In this document: in pieces, positions 1,184 to 21,611 of the stretch
Layout of the letters: each line of letters opens with the position of its first letter
How positions within the stretch are numbered: the stretch's first letter is position 1
Source: a virus
UHGV virus genome: UHGV-0116607
Direction: 5' to 3' (one strand)
Length of the DNA: 25,764 nucleotides
The notes under the pieces: generated by a model
Databases searched by the model: none
Seen by the model: the letters and a program-made list of their open reading frames with translations, nothing else
Told to the model about the DNA's origin: nothing
Translations under genes and position numbers: made by a program

Positions 1184-1337
1184 CCTGACAGCTGACACGC
1201 CGATCCCCGGAATGACGGTTCCGTTCACGTGGCAGGCAAGTCTGGAGTTAAACGCTCAGCTCTACACGGCGCTGGGGCAGTGCAATCTGGATAAGGCAGC
1301 AATCAGGAAAATCGAATCATCAAGAGCCTCGCAATAG
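1074..1337 (+). CDS. Rz1-like outer-membrane lipoprotein spanin (o-spanin), +1 frame, overlapping the 3' end of the i-spanin gene
   Basis: Lipoprotein signal peptide with lipobox LLTAC|G (…KAIRVLTSLFLLPLLTACGNTK…), Pro-rich mature part and a C-terminal Cys. Start is uncertain: TTG at 1074 gives a canonical signal peptide; in-frame ATG codons at 1014 and 990 are alternatives. Confidence 0.5.
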   Translation: MKAIRVLTSLFLLPLLTACGNTKTVYVPAPVVPISADLTADTPIPGMTVPFTWQASLELNAQLYTALGQCNLDKAAIRKIESSRASQ

Positions 1338-1351
1338 CGGGGCTTTTTTAT
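1325..1351 (+). terminator. Putative intrinsic terminator after the lysis cassette
   Basis: Hairpin AGCCTCGC-AATA-GCGGGGCT (one mismatch) followed by TTTTTT; overlaps the Rz1 stop codon. Confidence 0.45.
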
Positions 1352-1389
1352 GCGTATCGTACACGCAAACCATCGAGAGTCTTTCAGTC

Positions 1390-1457
1390 GTGAGCCTGAG
1401 GAACGCCGTTAAAGGTGGCGACCTCTCTCGGGCGGCGTTCCTGTACGACAGGCTCAC
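1390..1457 (+). promoter_or_regulatory. Long imperfect inverted repeat (predicted stem-loop) in the leader of the orphan gene
   Basis: Arms GTGAGCCTG+AGGAACGCCG (1390-1408) and CGGCGTTCCT[gtacga]CAGGCTCAC (1433-1457): 19 paired positions with a 6-nt bulge and a 24-nt loop; ends 18 nt before the ATG at 1475; no U-tract follows. Confidence 0.35.
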
Positions 1458-1474
1458 ATCTAAAGGAAAACAGC

Positions 1475-2206
1475 ATGAAAGTTATCAAGTATTGGAAAGT
1501 TCAGCTTCTGCAGCTTTCTCAGCCTTCCGGCAAGCTTCCCGGCATTATCAACGCCCACAATCTGGTCGAAAGCCTGTTGTTTGAGGGGTACTCGAAAGAT
1601 AAACCGAAAATTAACCTCGGTTCCGGAGTAAATATTGAGTTGTTTACAGCGCCCGATTCGCTGGAAACCCGTATCTTTCGTAACCACCTCGTTGACAGTG
1701 TGCGTTGCTTCCCGGTGTTTGAATATGATGATGAAACTGACGGGACTCAGGAAGAGCAGACTAAGCCACCCTCACGCGAGGCCATGATTGAATATATCAA
1801 GCAGGCCATTGGGGAAGGCTATCAGCCTAAAATCTGCCATGAGCTCATTAGCAATCCTGATCTGCTTTGGCAGTTGCATGACGAGGCGGTCGATTATGAA
1901 TATCGCGCTTGTTGGCGCTGGTACCAAGAAGGCCATGGTTTTCATGAGACTTTTAGCGTCCCTGAGAAAATCCACGATCATTCCTGCGTTAACTGTTTTT
2001 CCGATAAAGGCCCATGCCTTGGTGACTGCCACGTTTCCGACGTTAATAAGGCTCGCAGCTCCTCCTTCGAAGACGTAGTGAATCCGGTAATCAAATGGCT
2101 TAACGAAAACGCCAACCCTCATACATCAGTGAGCATCGACGCAACCAGTGCTCAGCTGCTTACTGGTGAAATCGGCATTCACACGGAAGAGTTCATTAAG
2201 GACTGA
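1475..2206 (+). CDS. Hypothetical protein, acidic, Cys/His-rich C-terminal motif (putative moron / accessory gene)
   Basis: 243 aa from ATG with AAGGA ribosome-binding site; lower GC than neighbours; C-x2-C-x6-C-x3-C-H cluster (HDHSCVNCFSDKGPCLGDCH); lies between the lysis cassette terminator and terS; no family recognised by eye. Confidence 0.55.
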   Translation: MKVIKYWKVQLLQLSQPSGKLPGIINAHNLVESLLFEGYSKDKPKINLGSGVNIELFTAPDSLETRIFRNHLVDSVRCFPVFEYDDETDGTQEEQTKPPSREAMIEYIKQAIGEGYQPKICHELISNPDLLWQLHDEAVDYEYRACWRWYQEGHGFHETFSVPEKIHDHSCVNCFSDKGPCLGDCHVSDVNKARSSSFEDVVNPVIKWLNENANPHTSVSIDATSAQLLTGEIGIHTEEFIKD

Positions 2207-2271
2207 CCGGGCATTACAGGAGCCCTTCTCTATGAGGGGCTTCGATAATGTCAAACAGCAGGTGATTCAAC

Positions 2272-3315
2272 ATGGCAAAACCGGACTGGGGAGACCTCCA
2301 AAAACGGTTCCTGTCCGAGCATGCCAAAACCGGCATTTCTCCCAAAGAATGGTGCGAAGCGCAGGGACTGAATTACTCGACTGCAAAGCGCTATATCAAA
2401 ATTGCGAATGGTAGTGCGAATTCGCAAAAGAAAAGTGCGAATAAAACTGCGAATTCGCAAAAGGCGGATCATGCGAAAAGGAGTGTAAAGCCAGAGCCTG
2501 AGGCGCAAAAAAAAACTGCGTCAGAGTGCTCAATGCCTCCTCCTTCAGCTCCAGATGATTTCGGACTTTCCGACCAGCAGATGATATTTGCACAACACGT
2601 CGTCGATGGGAAAACCCGAGTAGATGCATATCGCCTTGCCGGTTATGCGGGGACGGGAAATGCCGCCTATGTGACTGCAAGTCAGCTCCTCAGAAACCCT
2701 AAGGTTTCACGCTACGTGCATCACCTGCGTAATGAGCGACAGAAGCGATACGCTGCAGAACTCGATGATGTGATCGGTCAGTTGACCGCAATCATTAACG
2801 CTGACCCAAACGAGATATCTCAATACCGTCGCGTTAACTGCCGGTACTGCTGGGGAAGCGATCACAAATATCAATGGCGAGATATCGCCGAGCAGCTATC
2901 CGCTGAGCGCAAGGCTGAATCGGATGGTACCGCGCCGCCAGATACATCCGGCGGAATTGGCTTTGTCGACAACGCCGATCCAAATCCTGAGTGCCCTCGC
3001 TGTAATGGCGAAGGGGTAGGAGAACCTTTCTTTGCTGACACTCGCGATCTTGAAGGTGACGCGCGCTATCTGCTGCAAGGTGTGAAGCTGGGCAAATTCG
3101 GGATTGAAATCCTGACTGCCGACAAAGACAGCGCCCGCAAAGAGCTGGCCAGACTAATCCTTTTGCGGAATACGAGCGAGCGTCAATCGCTGCTCGATGT
3201 AGAGCGTCTCGAGTTGCAGAACGAGAAACTACGTCACGAAATTAGTGCTCTGAGAGACGGCGACAAAGATAACGCGATCGTCGTACACAACACCCTGCCG
3301 ATACCTGGAAGATGA
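2272..3315 (+). CDS. Terminase small subunit
   Basis: 347 aa; AGGTGA ribosome-binding site; directly upstream of and abutting the large terminase; N-terminal region reads as a DNA-binding helix-turn-helix segment followed by a basic linker; C-terminal coiled-coil-like region. Family assignment not verified. Confidence 0.6.
   Translation: MAKPDWGDLQKRFLSEHAKTGISPKEWCEAQGLNYSTAKRYIKIANGSANSQKKSANKTANSQKADHAKRSVKPEPEAQKKTASECSMPPPSAPDDFGLSDQQMIFAQHVVDGKTRVDAYRLAGYAGTGNAAYVTASQLLRNPKVSRYVHHLRNERQKRYAAELDDVIGQLTAIINADPNEISQYRRVNCRYCWGSDHKYQWRDIAEQLSAERKAESDGTAPPDTSGGIGFVDNADPNPECPRCNGEGVGEPFFADTRDLEGDARYLLQGVKLGKFGIEILTADKDSARKELARLILLRNTSERQSLLDVERLELQNEKLRHEISALRDGDKDNAIVVHNTLPIPGR
2401..2466. 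repeat. 33-bp tandem direct repeat (2 units, about 25/33 identical), each containing the palindrome TGCGAATTCGCA
   Basis: Units 2401-2433 and 2434-2466; perfect 12-bp palindromes at 2415-2426 and 2448-2459; additional TGCGAAT copies at 2403 and 2436; encodes the duplicated peptide SANSQKK / TANSQKA within terS. Confidence 0.6.
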
Positions 3316-4659: not shown

Positions 4660-6078
4660 ATGAACGAAGACGATTTCGAAATCGGCAGCTGCTCTCCAGA
4701 GTTGATGGCATTGCTGGACAGCGACGATATTCAGCCTGGTTCCTCGGCTGGGTATCAGGCCTGCAAGACGATTTATCTCTTCCACCCCCTGGGCGGAAAG
4801 ATGGTGGATCGCCCGATTAAAATGGCGATGAATGAGCCGCGCACCGTGCATGTTGCCCAGTCGTACGGCCTTGAGCAGCGCCTGCGCGACGCGTTCGAGC
4901 GCGAATGGAAAGAGATGGGTGCGAACCAGCACATCGCCAACGCCGCGCGCATAGCCCGTATTTACGGCGTATCAGCGATCGCAATGCTGGTGGATAACCA
5001 GGAGCCGAATGAATCGCTGGACTACCGCACGCTGTACAAGCACAACGTCAGCTTTAACATTCTCGATCCGTTGAATACCGCGGGCAGTATCGTGCTGAAC
5101 CAGGACCCAAACGCCCATGACTTCCAGAAAGTCGAAGGCATTCGTGTGGCTGGCAAGCCATACCACAAATCGCGATGCATAGTCGCGCAGAACGAAGATC
5201 CTATTTATCTCGCGTACAACCCTGCGGCGTTCGGGTTCACCGGACGCAGTGTGTATCAGCGTGCGCTTTTCCCGCTGAAATCCTTTATTCAGACCATGCG
5301 CACTGATGACATGGTTGCGGTTAAAGGCGGACTGCTAATTACCAAAATTGCAGGCGCTGGCGCGGTTGTTAACAAAGTTATGCAGGCGCTGGGTGGATTC
5401 AAGCGCATGCTGCTGAAGCGGGGTAAAACTGGTGAGGTCCTGCAGATTGGACCGCAGGATGGTATCGAGTCAATCGATCTGAGTAATCTGGAAAAACCTC
5501 TCGACTCTGCGCGTAAGCATATTCTGGAGAACATAGCCGCCGCCGCCGACATGCCAGCGATCATCCTCAACTCTGAGACGTTCGCCCAGGGCTTCGGTGA
5601 AGGCACTGAAGATGCCCGTGCCGTAGCGGTGTACATCGACAATATCCGCGAGTGGCTGGACCCGCTTTACGCGTTCTTCATCCGCGTGTGCCAGTACCGC
5701 GCCTGGAGTATTGAGTTCTTCCAGTCTCTGCGTGCCGACCTCCCGGAGCTGAAAAACACCTACAGCGTTTATTTCGCGAGCTGGATAAACAACTTCGAAT
5801 ATCGCTGGCCGTCCTCCCTGAAAGAGCCGGAAAGCGAGAAGGTGAAGGTCGACGAGACGCGCTTTAAGGCGATCGTCAGCATGCTGGAAGTGGTGCTGCC
5901 GCAGCTCACGGCTGACCCGGAAAACCGCGCGACGCTTATCGAATGGGCGTGCGAAAACGCCAACGCCAACGAGAACCTCTTCCCCCAGCGGCTTAATCTT
6001 GATTACGACTCGCTGAAGGAAAACCCACCGCCGGAGCCGCCGAAAGCTGAAGAGCCAGGCGGCGGGATGATGCTATGA
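4660..6078 (+). CDS. Portal protein (putative)
   Basis: 472 aa; position immediately after the large terminase; size typical of portal proteins; no motif-level confirmation possible by eye. Confidence 0.5.
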   Translation: MNEDDFEIGSCSPELMALLDSDDIQPGSSAGYQACKTIYLFHPLGGKMVDRPIKMAMNEPRTVHVAQSYGLEQRLRDAFEREWKEMGANQHIANAARIARIYGVSAIAMLVDNQEPNESLDYRTLYKHNVSFNILDPLNTAGSIVLNQDPNAHDFQKVEGIRVAGKPYHKSRCIVAQNEDPIYLAYNPAAFGFTGRSVYQRALFPLKSFIQTMRTDDMVAVKGGLLITKIAGAGAVVNKVMQALGGFKRMLLKRGKTGEVLQIGPQDGIESIDLSNLEKPLDSARKHILENIAAAADMPAIILNSETFAQGFGEGTEDARAVAVYIDNIREWLDPLYAFFIRVCQYRAWSIEFFQSLRADLPELKNTYSVYFASWINNFEYRWPSSLKEPESEKVKVDETRFKAIVSMLEVVLPQLTADPENRATLIEWACENANANENLFPQRLNLDYDSLKENPPPEPPKAEEPGGGMML

Positions 6079-6899
6079 ACACTTTCACCCGAACAGTGAG
6101 AGACGCGGTGAAGTTCTTTCTCCGCAATGGCTACTCATCCCGGGAAGAGCTGGAACGCTGGCAGGCGATTATCCGCCAGGCGGCCGAAAGCGAAACCTCC
6201 GATGACTACATGGCGATGGTCACCCGCAACCTGACGAAAGCTTACGACCTGCAGGTTGGTCGCGCTGGCGCGCTGAAGCGCCACCAGGGCATATCCCGGT
6301 TTACGCTCAACTACCTTGAGCCGAAGCTGAGGACGGAACTCGACAGGCGGATCCTCGCCAGCGCTGACCTAATCCAGCTCAATCGCAAAAAAGCCATCGA
6401 CACTACGTTGTCGCGGTTTAGCGGCTGGGCCAGCAGCATTCCCTCAGCCGACAGCATTGCGCTGACCGGCATTCAGGGAACGATGCGGGAGACGGCAGCG
6501 CACATTCAGAAGGCCGCCGAGAAGGTGGACTATGAAGCGCGCCGGGTGATGATCGACCAGAACCATAAGCTGATAGCCAACATCGACAACGTGATCGCAA
6601 CGAGCAATAACGCGATTGCAGCGATATGGCACAGCCACTGGCGGCGGCCGGGTTATGACTTCCGGGAAGACCACAAGGAACGCGATCAGCTGTATTACCT
6701 GATTCGCGGGAACTGGGCGCAAAAAAACGGGTACGTGAAAGCAGGTCCTGCCGGCTACCTGGACGAAATCACTCAGCCAGGCGAAGAGGTTTTTTGCCAG
6801 TGCTACGTGACATACATCTACAACCTCCGAAGCATTCCTGAATACATGCTGACCCAGAAGGGGCAGAAGTTCATGGAGTCGATGAAGAAAGCAGCATAG
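6075..6899 (+). CDS. Head morphogenesis protein (MuF / SPP1 gp7-like, putative)
   Basis: 274 aa; ATGA start/stop overlap with the portal gene; conserved position downstream of portal. Confidence 0.4.
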   Translation: MNTFTRTVRDAVKFFLRNGYSSREELERWQAIIRQAAESETSDDYMAMVTRNLTKAYDLQVGRAGALKRHQGISRFTLNYLEPKLRTELDRRILASADLIQLNRKKAIDTTLSRFSGWASSIPSADSIALTGIQGTMRETAAHIQKAAEKVDYEARRVMIDQNHKLIANIDNVIATSNNAIAAIWHSHWRRPGYDFREDHKERDQLYYLIRGNWAQKNGYVKAGPAGYLDEITQPGEEVFCQCYVTYIYNLRSIPEYMLTQKGQKFMESMKKAA

Positions 6900-6908
6900 G
6901 AGCATTAA

Positions 6909-8531
<1,623 letters not shown>

Positions 8532-19867: not shown

Positions 19868-20196
19868 GAACCTACGGCAGGAATTCAGATGGTAAGTGGA
19901 CTCTGGTCGAAACAGATGAGAATGGATTCAACGACGCGGTTTACCTGACTACTCTGGTGCAAAATCTTAAGCTTGCGCCGCAGGAGTCTCCGTTCTTCGC
20001 GAACAATGGTATTCCGGCTAACGGATCAGTAATACAGCAGGTATTGCCGACGTATTACGTTAACCGTCTGCAACAACAATTTAGTCCCTACTTTTCATCG
20101 CTACAAATTGCTTTGGTTAGTGATGATCCACCTGTTTATAACATTTCGGCGATAACCAACGCCGGTTCTAAAATTATCACAACGGTGAACGTATGA
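19864..20196 (+). CDS. Small baseplate wedge protein (gpW / gp25-like, putative)
   Basis: 110 aa; ATGA overlap; size and position between spike and J-like genes. Confidence 0.4.
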   Translation: MRTYGRNSDGKWTLVETDENGFNDAVYLTTLVQNLKLAPQESPFFANNGIPANGSVIQQVLPTYYVNRLQQQFSPYFSSLQIALVSDDPPVYNISAITNAGSKIITTVNV

Positions 20197-21611
20197 GTGA
20201 TTTGTCCGTTAGCTATGACGCAGCCGGGCCAGTGCCGAAAACATCCGAAGAGCTGCGCGCCGACTTAGTTTCAAGAGCCACAGAATTATCACCAGGCATC
20301 ACTACGGACCTCCCCGGATCACTTATCGAGGATATCGTCGGTACCGATGTTGGCGCGCTACTCATTGCCGATCAGATTCGTGTCGACCTCATCAACTCCG
20401 TAGGCCCGCTGAAAGCCAATATGTACATGCTGAACCTTCTGGCCCAGCAGTCAGGTATCAGCGAACAAAAAACTCAGGGGGCGACAACTGTACCTGTCGT
20501 GTTTGAGGGCCCGGTCGGCTTCGTAGTGTCACAGGGGTTTCTGGTCAGCGATGGCACGTATACCTACCAGATCGCCGATGCGACAGTGGTGCTGTCTTCC
20601 GGTGTCAGTTCGATGGTAACAGCCATTGCAACAAACACTGGTTCGTGGGCTGTACCGGTAGGATCGGTTAATCAGATACTGACCAGCCTGCCGTCTGGCA
20701 TTACTCTGACCTGCACCAACCCGGTTGCTGGCACCCCAGGTGGTGCGCCTGAAACTAACTTCGAATTTCGCGAGCGCGTCTGGGAAGCTCAGATGTCGAC
20801 TGTTCAGGGATATCCAGGCTTTATCCGCCAGAAATTGACAGACCTGAGTAATGTCCAGGCTCGTCTGGTTTCCGTTGTTCAGAGCGGTAATGCCTGGATT
20901 GTTATGTGTGGCGGCGGCGATATCTATGAGATGGCCGGGGCCATTTATAAGTCAGCCGGCGACATCAGCAGGCTAAAAGGGACTGACCTGAACGTCACCG
21001 GGATCACCAATGCGAACCCAGGAGTAGTAACGACCGACATCACGCACGGATTCAGCTCTGGCCAGGTAATTAATATCGCAGGTGTTACCGGCATGAGCGG
21101 GATTAATAACGTCCCTCTCACTATAACCGTGTTAAGTCCACATACTTTCTCAATAGGCATCAATACCACCTCGTCAGGCGCATGGACTGGTGGTGGAATA
21201 GTTACGCCGAACCTGAGGAATAATGTGGTTACGGTCAACGACTGGCCAGATAACTACCTGATACCGTTTGTTATACCATTTCAGCAACTGGTGACTATCA
21301 AGTTTCAGTGGGCAACCGAAAGCGCGAACTACCTGACAGACGCGACAATAGCCTCTCTGGTGACGCAACCGGTAATCAATTATGTAAACGGGATATTCGC
21401 AGGAAAGCCGATGAATATAAATAACGTCAAAGATGTCTTTCTTCAGGCGATTAACAGCACGCTCGATATGAGCCTGATTTCGACACTGAACGTTATTGTT
21501 ACGGTGAATGGTGTAATCACAGGAGTGGATGCCGGAACTAACATTATCAGCGGCGACCCTTACAGTTACTGGTTCATTGCCTCTGACGGGGTTATCGTGG
21601 ACGGGATATAA
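20193..21611 (+). CDS. Baseplate J-like protein with Ig-like insertion (putative)
   Basis: 472 aa; ATGA overlap; position in V-W-J-I order; contains the shared …HGFSSGQVINIAGVTGMSGINN…TFSIG… domain. Confidence 0.45.
   Translation: MSDLSVSYDAAGPVPKTSEELRADLVSRATELSPGITTDLPGSLIEDIVGTDVGALLIADQIRVDLINSVGPLKANMYMLNLLAQQSGISEQKTQGATTVPVVFEGPVGFVVSQGFLVSDGTYTYQIADATVVLSSGVSSMVTAIATNTGSWAVPVGSVNQILTSLPSGITLTCTNPVAGTPGGAPETNFEFRERVWEAQMSTVQGYPGFIRQKLTDLSNVQARLVSVVQSGNAWIVMCGGGDIYEMAGAIYKSAGDISRLKGTDLNVTGITNANPGVVTTDITHGFSSGQVINIAGVTGMSGINNVPLTITVLSPHTFSIGINTTSSGAWTGGGIVTPNLRNNVVTVNDWPDNYLIPFVIPFQQLVTIKFQWATESANYLTDATIASLVTQPVINYVNGIFAGKPMNINNVKDVFLQAINSTLDMSLISTLNVIVTVNGVITGVDAGTNIISGDPYSYWFIASDGVIVDGI

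Follow-up and report, generated by a model that had tools for sequence, protein, structure and literature searches.

Structured leader RNA at the lysis-terminase junction

The virus genome UHGV-0116607 was analyzed here as a single stretch of 25,764 nucleotides (nt), the whole of which is referred to as the window. Between its lysis cassette and a terS-like gene lie, all on the plus strand, an intrinsic terminator (1325-1351), a leader RNA of approximately 115-120 nt (1352-1467), an open reading frame (ORF) for a protein of 243 amino acids (aa) that runs from ATG 1475 to TGA 2204-2206, and a second hairpin (2212-2250). The leader is a functional and conserved plus-strand RNA fold that buries the Shine-Dalgarno (SD) sequence of the gene behind it, termed the cargo in the following. 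A first-pass annotation, made from the letters of the window alone, had noted an inverted repeat of 19 base pairs (bp) with a 6-nt bulge ahead of the ATG (1390-1408/1433-1457) and called it a highly structured leader. The repeat is present as described, although it ends 17 nt rather than 18 nt before the ATG, and the hairpin is real; however, it is not a single hairpin but one arm of a larger conserved RNA that contains two pseudoknots (PK1 and PK2) in addition to the nested helices (P1 to P5). The elements of this RNA are as follows.

1352-1366, plus strand: P1, a 4-bp hairpin (GCGU/ACGC) with a 7-nt loop, predicted independently in six sequence classes
1367-1379, plus strand: linker that joins P1 to P2 and holds the 5' strand of PK2
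1357-1362 with 1443-1448, plus strand: PK1, formed by the P1 loop (UCGUAC) and the internal loop (GUACGA), with covarying alleles
1374-1379 with 1425-1430, plus strand: PK2, formed by the linker (CGAGAG) and the apical part (CUCUCG), with matched alleles
1380-1384 and 1386-1387 with 1463-1467 and 1460-1461, plus strand: P2, in which the anti-SD (UCUUU, AG) forms the 5' strand; present in minimum free energy and partition-function folds
1390-1398 with 1449-1457, plus strand: P3, 9 bp, GTGAGCCTG with CAGGCTCAC
1399-1408 with 1433-1442, plus strand: P4, 10 bp, AGGAACGCCG with CGGCGTTCCT
1413-1416 with 1421-1424, plus strand: P5, an optional apical hairpin in a region that is deleted in mEp-type copies
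1443-1448, plus strand: 6-nt asymmetric internal loop GTACGA, unpaired in the nested fold and situated between the two 3' segments
1462-1467, plus strand: SD sequence AAAGGA, within the 3' strand of P2 (1460-1474 includes the spacer to the ATG)

The segment 1352-1480 (129 nt) folds with -50.5 kcal/mol (z = -4.05) and none of 200 shuffled sequences was as stable, which places the fold well beyond chance. ViennaRNA folds computed independently for the six sequence classes produced the same architecture with the SD paired, the probability of it being unpaired ranging from 0.005 to 0.32. A reading of 1390-1457 as an intrinsic terminator found no U-tract, as the stem is followed by ATCTAAAGGAAAAC, in agreement with the first-pass view that this hairpin is regulatory and not a terminator. 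A GTG at 1415 stands in frame with ATG 1475 and could open a 263-aa ORF. A leader peptide or N-terminal extension beginning at this GTG was rejected, as indels and spacing changes among the classes break the frame; because 1-nt indels and a variable SD-to-ATG spacing break any reading frame, the leader is regarded as non-coding. The GenBank/RefSeq records of HK639 and phi80 begin the rha coding sequence inside the leader (L001 3122; L131 2593). These starts were probably mis-called, because homology among cargo classes begins at the ATG that follows the SD.

Compensatory changes in nested helices and pseudoknots

Formal counts of covariation were made on a covariance-model alignment of 50 distinct sequences, which was fitted to the nested helices only and not to the pseudoknots. 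Paired cells amounted to 93.9% (87.5% in shuffles), 21 pairs changed on both sides (8.5 +/- 1.6 in shuffles), and the covariation score was 0.174, compared to 0.074 in shuffles (0 of 500 reached the observed value) and at most 0.070 in slid controls. Changes on both sides were spread over P1 (4 of 4 pairs), PK1 (5 of 6), P3 (5 of 9), P4 (5 of 10) and PK2 (1 of 6), with paired cells at 99.5% for P1, 95.7% for PK1 and 90.5% for PK2, where the one double-changing pair occurs in seven sequences. An earlier count based on MAFFT agrees. G-U pairs occur in several helices, the sequence of P3 is almost invariant, and most of the P3 and P4 covariation is contributed by divergent second leader copies at two loci, L119 (57 bits) and L067 (45 bits). 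The signal is strand-specific, with covariance-model scores of 137-150 bits on the plus strand versus at most 19 bits on the minus strand. Within the window, the model recovered one copy (1351-1473, plus strand, 136.7 bits) and nothing comparable on the minus strand.

PK1 was first noticed by eye, as the P1 loop and the bulge vary together. At least seven complementary alleles are found, among them TCGTAC/GTACGA (the window allele), TCTCAC/GTGAGA, TCGCA(T)/(G)TGCGA, TCGCAC/GTGCGA, TTCCCC/GGGGAA, TTCACC/GGTGAA, TAGCAC/GTGCTA and CCGCA/TGCGG. When all strands were crossed in a matrix, cognate pairs always formed 6 bp and distant alleles 2-5 bp. For PK2, the matched alleles are CGAGAG/CTCTCG, GAAAGT/ACTTTC and CGATA/TATCG, with CAAGAG/CTCTTG seen by eye in a Providencia phage.

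These changes bear on whether the conserved sequence might be no more than a linker for recombination, a joint between mosaic segments or a cos or pac site in the DNA, with no function as RNA. Such a reading fits the homology, which breaks exactly at gene borders, and the presence in the leader core of GGCGACCTC and GGGCGGCG, which match parts of the lambda cohesive end. A linker would have no need for six helices that are kept paired by compensatory changes, phi80 carries the leader as well as its true cos 2.4 kb downstream, and the carriers include phages with headful-type terminases. We regard this explanation as extremely improbable. A cos relic was likewise rejected, as only fragments of 9/12 and 8/12 nt are present and the real cos of phi80 lies elsewhere. 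The two shared strings, located in the leader core (1417-1437), correspond to nt 4-12 and 1-8 of the lambda/phi80 cohesive end and were judged coincidental; a 9-mer shared with the 320-nt lambda cos region is found in 32% of random window segments.

Distribution of the leader and exchange of the gene behind it

Using megablast, region 1323-1479 was found to be 83-92% identical in HK639, CobraSix and several Klebsiella phages. All matches break off at 1475-1480, and the gene that follows encodes Rha or an unrelated 142-aa protein. An invariant 24-mer core, AGGTGGCGACCTCTCTCGGGCGGC, occurs in at least 120 IMG/VR contigs, a sample chosen by exact match to this core. The leader is present in 52 phage records, including phi80, HK620, HK639, HK106 and mEp237/213/043/390, and also in phages of Salmonella, Hafnia, Providencia, Aeromonas and Actinobacillus. 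In phi80, it precedes the original rha gene. The phi80-type leader is carried by 639 of 5426 complete E. coli genomes (~12%), with no feature annotated under it. Searches against Rfam 15 (including C4, IsrK, pistol, twister, hammerhead, HDV-like and riboswitch families) scored 1352-1474 at 16 bits at best, against a gathering threshold of 86, and with 171 nt at E<=10 the leader matched no family and only tails of terminator-containing models were hit. The papers searched contained no description of the leader. It appears to be an undescribed, widespread and doubly pseudoknotted cis-regulatory RNA of the SD-occluding structured-leader type.

Across 120 loci selected by the core, the first gene encodes Rha (73), KilA-N (19), a member of the window protein family (11) or HNH_3 (5), with T5orf172/MUG113 (2), a membrane protein (2), Bro-N (1) and a small helix-turn-helix protein (1) as rarer cargo. 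The synteny comparison proposed by the first-pass annotation thus shows a variable lysis-terS slot, with at least eight unrelated gene families behind the same leader. Sequence similarity is lost at the ATG and returns once the stop codon has been passed, so that what is exchanged is precisely the ORF. The 3' boundary hairpin follows directly after the cargo stop, just before the terS start, and carries compensatory changes behind unrelated cargo (compared to loci L004, L006 and L007).

Mosaic proteins resembling phi80 gp49, and in addition a glycosyltransferase, are encoded behind a short variant of the leader. The glycosyltransferase gene lies directly behind this short leader in mEp390 (L133 2111-3568) and after a gp49-like gene in SaltyDalty (L139 2675 onward). 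The other short-leader cargo (phi80 gp49, mEp237 gp62, SaltyDalty CDS0020 and AsXd-1) is also mosaic, combining an N-terminal LSGAATDVLYALFFRGAL... module with a C-terminal PGGxIW. The LSGAATDVLYALFFRGAL... module is also found inside P0123, a member of the window protein family, and module shuffling therefore links the cargo of both leader types.

Two tandem leader copies, each before a different gene, occur in phi80 (L140), L028 and L029. In phi80, they are located at 43646-43769 and 45240-45348, before rha and gp49, respectively. In both phi80 and L029, the PK1 alleles differ between the tandem copies (TCTCAC/GTGAGA and TCGCAC/GTGCGA). L067 and L119 each have a second copy that is much more divergent. 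Two variants deviate from the common architecture. In Klebsiella phage GZ7 (L004 3125-3247), a P1 loop reading TTCGCAT is combined with the non-cognate bulge GTACGA, and L076 (1013-1126) is without P1 and the 5' strand of PK2 and has kept a window-type cargo gene.

Genomic setting and search for a promoter

The leader and cargo are flanked by two further hairpins.

1325-1351, plus strand: intrinsic terminator closing the lysis cassette, GAGCCTCGC-AATA-GCGGGGCT followed by T6, with an 8-bp GC-rich stem
2212-2250, plus strand: 3' boundary hairpin with an outer CAUUA/UAAUG pairing and an inner 10-bp stem (2219-2228/2234-2243), no U-tract

The terminator, which the first-pass annotation had also located, is labelled as such at the homologous hairpin in the HK639 and phi80 records, and the Rfam terminator tails match 1320-1352; a simple consensus terminator scan did not call it. 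In most variants it stands directly 5' of the leader. In many, P1 begins 0-3 nt past the T-run and the sequence 5' of P1 is not conserved, which leaves no room for a promoter. A scan of 1100-2400 for sigma-70-like promoters, which covers such sites and not weak or non-sigma-70 ones, found none. A promoter inside the leader was also considered and rejected, as the only candidate (TTCACA-16-TATTAA) is confined to one variant, lacks conservation and does not occur in the window. GC content falls from ~0.57 to ~0.49 at the cassette. The lower-GC island of the first-pass annotation is therefore confirmed as a dip (0.49-0.50 over 1351-2250, compared to 0.56-0.58 in the lysis genes) but not as one bounded by terS, since it extends to ~2700 inside the next gene.

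The gene had initially been proposed to be a classical moron, i.e., an autonomous gene that the prophage expresses from a separate promoter to serve defence, anti-defence or conversion, with the hairpin as a protein-binding or processing site. The variability behind this proposal holds, as the gene is present or replaced among relatives at the same site, the slot is hypervariable, its GC content is below that of the lysis genes and hairpins bracket the gene. One relative also has a glycosyltransferase, a class often used for lysogenic conversion, behind the same leader type. What finds no support is a promoter of its own that would serve the repressed prophage: no sigma-70-like site was found in 1100-2400, and P1 follows the T-run after 0-3 nt in many variants. 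Expression in the lysogen is unsupported, because no promoter was found and the cassette, preceded by a terminator, shares its strand with the late operon; its SD is moreover base-paired. The defence or anti-defence role found no homology in PADLOC, nor did Pfam or NCBIfam return a match, and the commonest cargos, Rha and KilA-N, are phage regulators rather than conversion genes. Overall, we consider a moron in this classical sense improbable.

Downstream of the cassette, the terS-like ORF (2272-3315, 347 aa when the longest ORF is taken) includes a ANSQKKSANKTANSQKA stretch of low complexity, and its two CxxC pairs (CRYC and CPRC) are suggestive of a zinc ribbon. At this position, the RefSeq annotation is limited to a 246-aa 'hypothetical protein', which is shorter than this ORF, and the N-terminus MAKPDW also occurs in HK639 TerS. 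In a near-identical prophage of E. coli KCJ3K291, odd names or domains are attached to structural modules: the gene in portal position (window 4660-6078) is named 'anti-CBASS protein Acb1 family', a 539-aa 'NUDIX domain-containing protein' lies among the head genes (window ~6620-8239), and a 472-aa protein of the baseplate region (window ~20095-21513) is named 'ubiquitin-activating E1 FCCH domain-containing'.

A mosaic cargo protein

The 243-aa cargo protein of the window is acidic, as first described, with an isoelectric point of 5.05, 38 D+E versus 22 K+R and seven cysteines. Profile searches in Pfam and NCBIfam returned no match at E<=1, including the Rha, KilA-N and Bro-N domains of Pfam that other cargos in the slot do match; the anti-phage defence hidden Markov models of PADLOC-DB yielded 0 families at E<=1, and a PDB sequence search with the family profile yielded none at E<=10. 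The protein had been called an orphan, which is correct with respect to Pfam, NCBIfam and PADLOC but not otherwise. It matches phrog_16206, a family with no annotated function, at E = 3e-59 over its full length (residues 1-243, aligned to positions 3-137 of a 137-position profile, with additional modules in the window protein), and has 276 close homologues of 182-289 aa, all named hypothetical, in prophages of Klebsiella, E. coli and Raoultella. Its relatives number 419 among 1.8 billion representatives, with modules also occurring solo or recombined. The window gene itself was found in only 13 genomes, compared to the 639 complete E. coli genomes with a phi80-type leader. In the homologue alignment, entire blocks are present or absent in frame, which divides the protein as follows.

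1475-1723, plus strand: N-module (aa 1-83), constant across the homologue alignment
1724-1936, plus strand: acidic middle module (aa 84-154), absent from some homologues
1937-2032, plus strand: Cys4 module (aa 155-186), an optional 32-aa block absent from many full-length homologues
2033-2203, plus strand: linker and C-module (aa ~187-243), the C-module being the last ~50 aa and widespread

Two further optional inserts of 41 aa and 42 aa occur among the homologues. The cysteine cluster of the Cys4 module (C171-x2-C174-x6-C181-x3-C185, with H167, H169 and H186 as neighbours) has the spacing given in the first-pass annotation, although it is situated at ~70-76% of the length and not at the C-terminus. 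The motif HDHxCxNCF...GxCxGxC recurs wherever the Cys module occurs, including the N-terminus of other proteins, with substitutions in two aligned homologues. Its four-ligand CxxC...C...C spacing agrees with the earlier suggestion of a zinc knuckle, but no curated zinc-finger family in Pfam or NCBIfam matches at E<=1; the motif is probably a small zinc knuckle that serves as an optional add-on. As it is facultative and absent from many full-length homologues, the cluster cannot be the core of the protein's function.

For the C-module, 1337 relatives were found, most of which are stand-alone proteins of 50-65 aa distributed over the Enterobacterales. In a Yersinia prophage, a stand-alone C-module gene starts 10 nt after Rz, from which we conclude that the domain belongs to the lysis-to-head junction. 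Structure modelling followed by structure search, as had been proposed, was informative only for this part. The AlphaFold2 model of the full-length protein was unusable (per-residue confidence score, pLDDT, of 42.5), whereas the C-module was modelled confidently (pLDDT 88.6) as a helix and beta-hairpin that has no solved or annotated relative: no PDB fold matched (best E = 2.3), and matches in BFVD were restricted to uncharacterised small phage proteins. Judged from its alignments, the window protein is a mosaic of four small and widely shuffled phage modules and an ordinary member of an uncharacterised family.

Proposed mechanism

We consider it reasonably probable that 1325-2250 is a lambdoid late-operon accessory cassette, composed of terminator, leader, swappable ORF and 3' hairpin, which is transcribed late and in which the leader gates translation. 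According to this model, Q-modified RNA polymerase would read through from the late promoter and transcribe the cassette, while the leader would hold the cargo translationally closed. Translation would require the fold to be opened or cut, either by ribonuclease III (RNase III) at the asymmetric internal loop, by a host or phage factor, or through co-transcriptional kinetics. Such gating may serve to dose proteins that are harmful to the phage itself; the phi80 record remarks 'DNA synthesis inhibition in IHF- hosts' on rha, the commonest cargo (IHF, integration host factor). The conserved flanks would permit cargo to be exchanged exactly from ATG to stop by homologous recombination. The existence of many PK1 alleles next to a near-invariant P3 may reflect selection against cross-pairing between tandem or co-resident copies.

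RNase III processing is the favoured trigger, because the geometry of P3, internal loop and P4 resembles phage RNase III sites; the chief other candidate is a factor of host or phage origin that all carriers share. It is unlikely that the cargo regulates its own leader, since the cargo changes while the leader stays. Processing could also be the leader's main purpose, i.e., an RNase III site or a self-cleaving element that cuts the late transcript, sets mRNA stability and frees the SD, which is compatible with our model if it acts as the trigger. The arrangement of 9 bp and 10 bp around a 0/6-nt internal loop matches the geometry of T7 R1.1-type sites (about two helical turns), the near-invariant P3 suggests recognition, tandem copies bracket single genes in a manner akin to prophage hammerheads (PMC3088659), and double pseudoknots are typically seen in compact RNAs that catalyse a reaction or bind a ligand. 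Conversely, no Rfam ribozyme matched the 171 nt even at E<=10, a cut in the internal loop would leave 16 bp of P2 and P3 holding the anti-SD on the SD, and pairing in PK1 would make a three-way junction of the internal loop, unlike the classical substrates of RNase III. Processing as the leader's main role therefore seems unlikely to us. A hammerhead was rejected separately: CUGAGGA (1396-1402) resembles CUGANGA, other classes read CUGAGAA or CUGGGCA, and Rfam gave no match.

Alternatively, the leader could act as a sensor that opens the SD in response to a signal from host or phage, be it as an aptamer of the riboswitch kind or as a translational operator to which a protein binds. Such a role would fit the invariant nucleotides, unpaired or in the core, that lie beside covarying helices. 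It would also fit the combination of a pseudoknot with an SD-sequestering helix, which resembles translational riboswitches and ribosomal-protein operators, and conservation that is independent of cargo argues for a regulator common to all carriers. The cargo, however, has no metabolic theme and no ligand or protein candidate is evident; the link between IHF and rha is genetic only, no IHF consensus was seen by eye, and P5 with the apical part can be deleted. We rate a sensor as highly improbable. The IHF consensus looked for by eye was WATCAANNNNTTR, which was seen in neither the window nor the phi80 version of the leader.

Several points weigh against the model of a late, translationally gated cassette. 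We infer that transcription is late, that translation is gated and that a trigger opens the fold, and it is not obvious how the cargo gets made at all from an RNA whose SD is buried in a fold of -50 kcal/mol. Since the sequences are related, part of the excess in the shuffle tests is phylogeny and their independence is overstated. Covariation is thinner for PK2 than for PK1, with one formal double-changing pair and some alleles identified by eye, and because PK2 links the base and the tip of a long helix, the RNA must either bend sharply at the PK1 junction or pass through alternative states. The GZ7 and L076 variants imply that the 5' domain is dispensable or that those copies are impaired. 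Lastly, if the glycosyltransferase is a conversion gene, it would need to be expressed in the lysogen, which would require a promoter of a kind not found here and would challenge exclusively late expression.

A bolder reading, which we put forward as doubtful, is that the leader represents a new class of phage riboregulator. This compact, riboswitch- or ribozyme-like double pseudoknot would sense a host or phage cue, perhaps one related to the IHF-dependent state that has a bearing on rha, and switch on the self-toxic regulators Rha, KilA-N and Bro-N together with accessory genes late in infection, with the 6-nt kissing helix as a programmable address against cross-folding of tandem or co-resident cassettes.

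Irrespective of mechanism, a strongly covarying RNA sits unannotated in textbook coliphages (phi80, HK620 and HK639) and in ~12% of complete E. coli genomes, directly 5' of rha, whose toxicity in IHF-deficient hosts has lacked a mechanistic explanation since the 1990s. Annotation can be corrected in several records that place the rha start within the leader. If the leader does gate translation, the regulation of Rha, KilA-N and Bro-N becomes directly testable, the precise ATG-to-stop swaps of accessory genes in lambdoid phages would be explained, and the leader would offer an RNA part that is portable and has 6-nt alleles of natural orthogonality. For the protein, the result is negative but concrete, namely a mosaic of shuffled modules with a dispensable cysteine cluster.

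Comparison with known systems

The bor moron of phage lambda is an extra gene at the lysis-to-head junction that has its own promoter and varies among relatives. It lies on the opposite strand, whereas the window cassette is co-oriented with the late operon and is without a detectable promoter. The RNase III sites of T7 R1.1 and the lambda N leader consist of a helix of ~20 bp with an asymmetric internal loop upstream of an ORF in a polycistronic phage transcript. The window leader has a similar helix and loop, but its loop takes part in a covarying pseudoknot, next to which there is a second one. Pseudoknotted leaders that govern ribosome access are known from the alpha operon (S4), rpsO (S15) and T4 gene 32, where they are autoregulated by the encoded protein. 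In contrast, the window-type leader stays while the protein varies, so that any regulator would have to be common to all carriers.

The c4 antisense RNA of P1/P7 and the sar RNA of P22 control ant, using short complementary segments near the ribosome-binding site (RBS) of an antirepressor-type gene. Between P1 and P7, the complementary pairs of c4 differ in a compensatory manner, as the PK1 alleles do here. The c4 and sar RNAs are separate antisense molecules, whereas the two PK1 strands of the window leader are ~80 nt apart in one RNA. The 3' strand of PK1 is moreover located 14 nt 5' of the SD and not over it, and the C4 family of Rfam was not matched. The sar RNA is listed in PMC12197685. 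Hammerhead ribozymes flank variable accessory genes in prophages (PMC3088659), which is the same bracketing of changing genes in long transcripts as seen here, although the window leader has no hammerhead core and no Rfam ribozyme match.

In the Gifsy-1 prophage of Salmonella, the structured late-region RNA of IsrK-orf45-anrP keeps the RBS of its first ORF inactive and thereby gates a harmful antirepressor-like protein (PMC4825925). IsrK occupies the interval from Q to the lysis cassette and is equipped with a separate promoter and terminator; its short isoform acts in trans to open the fold (PMC4825925). The window leader, in contrast, follows the lysis genes, contains two pseudoknots, has no promoter that was found and does not match the IsrK family of Rfam. 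Overall, IsrK-orf45-anrP is nonetheless the system closest in logic to the leader described here.

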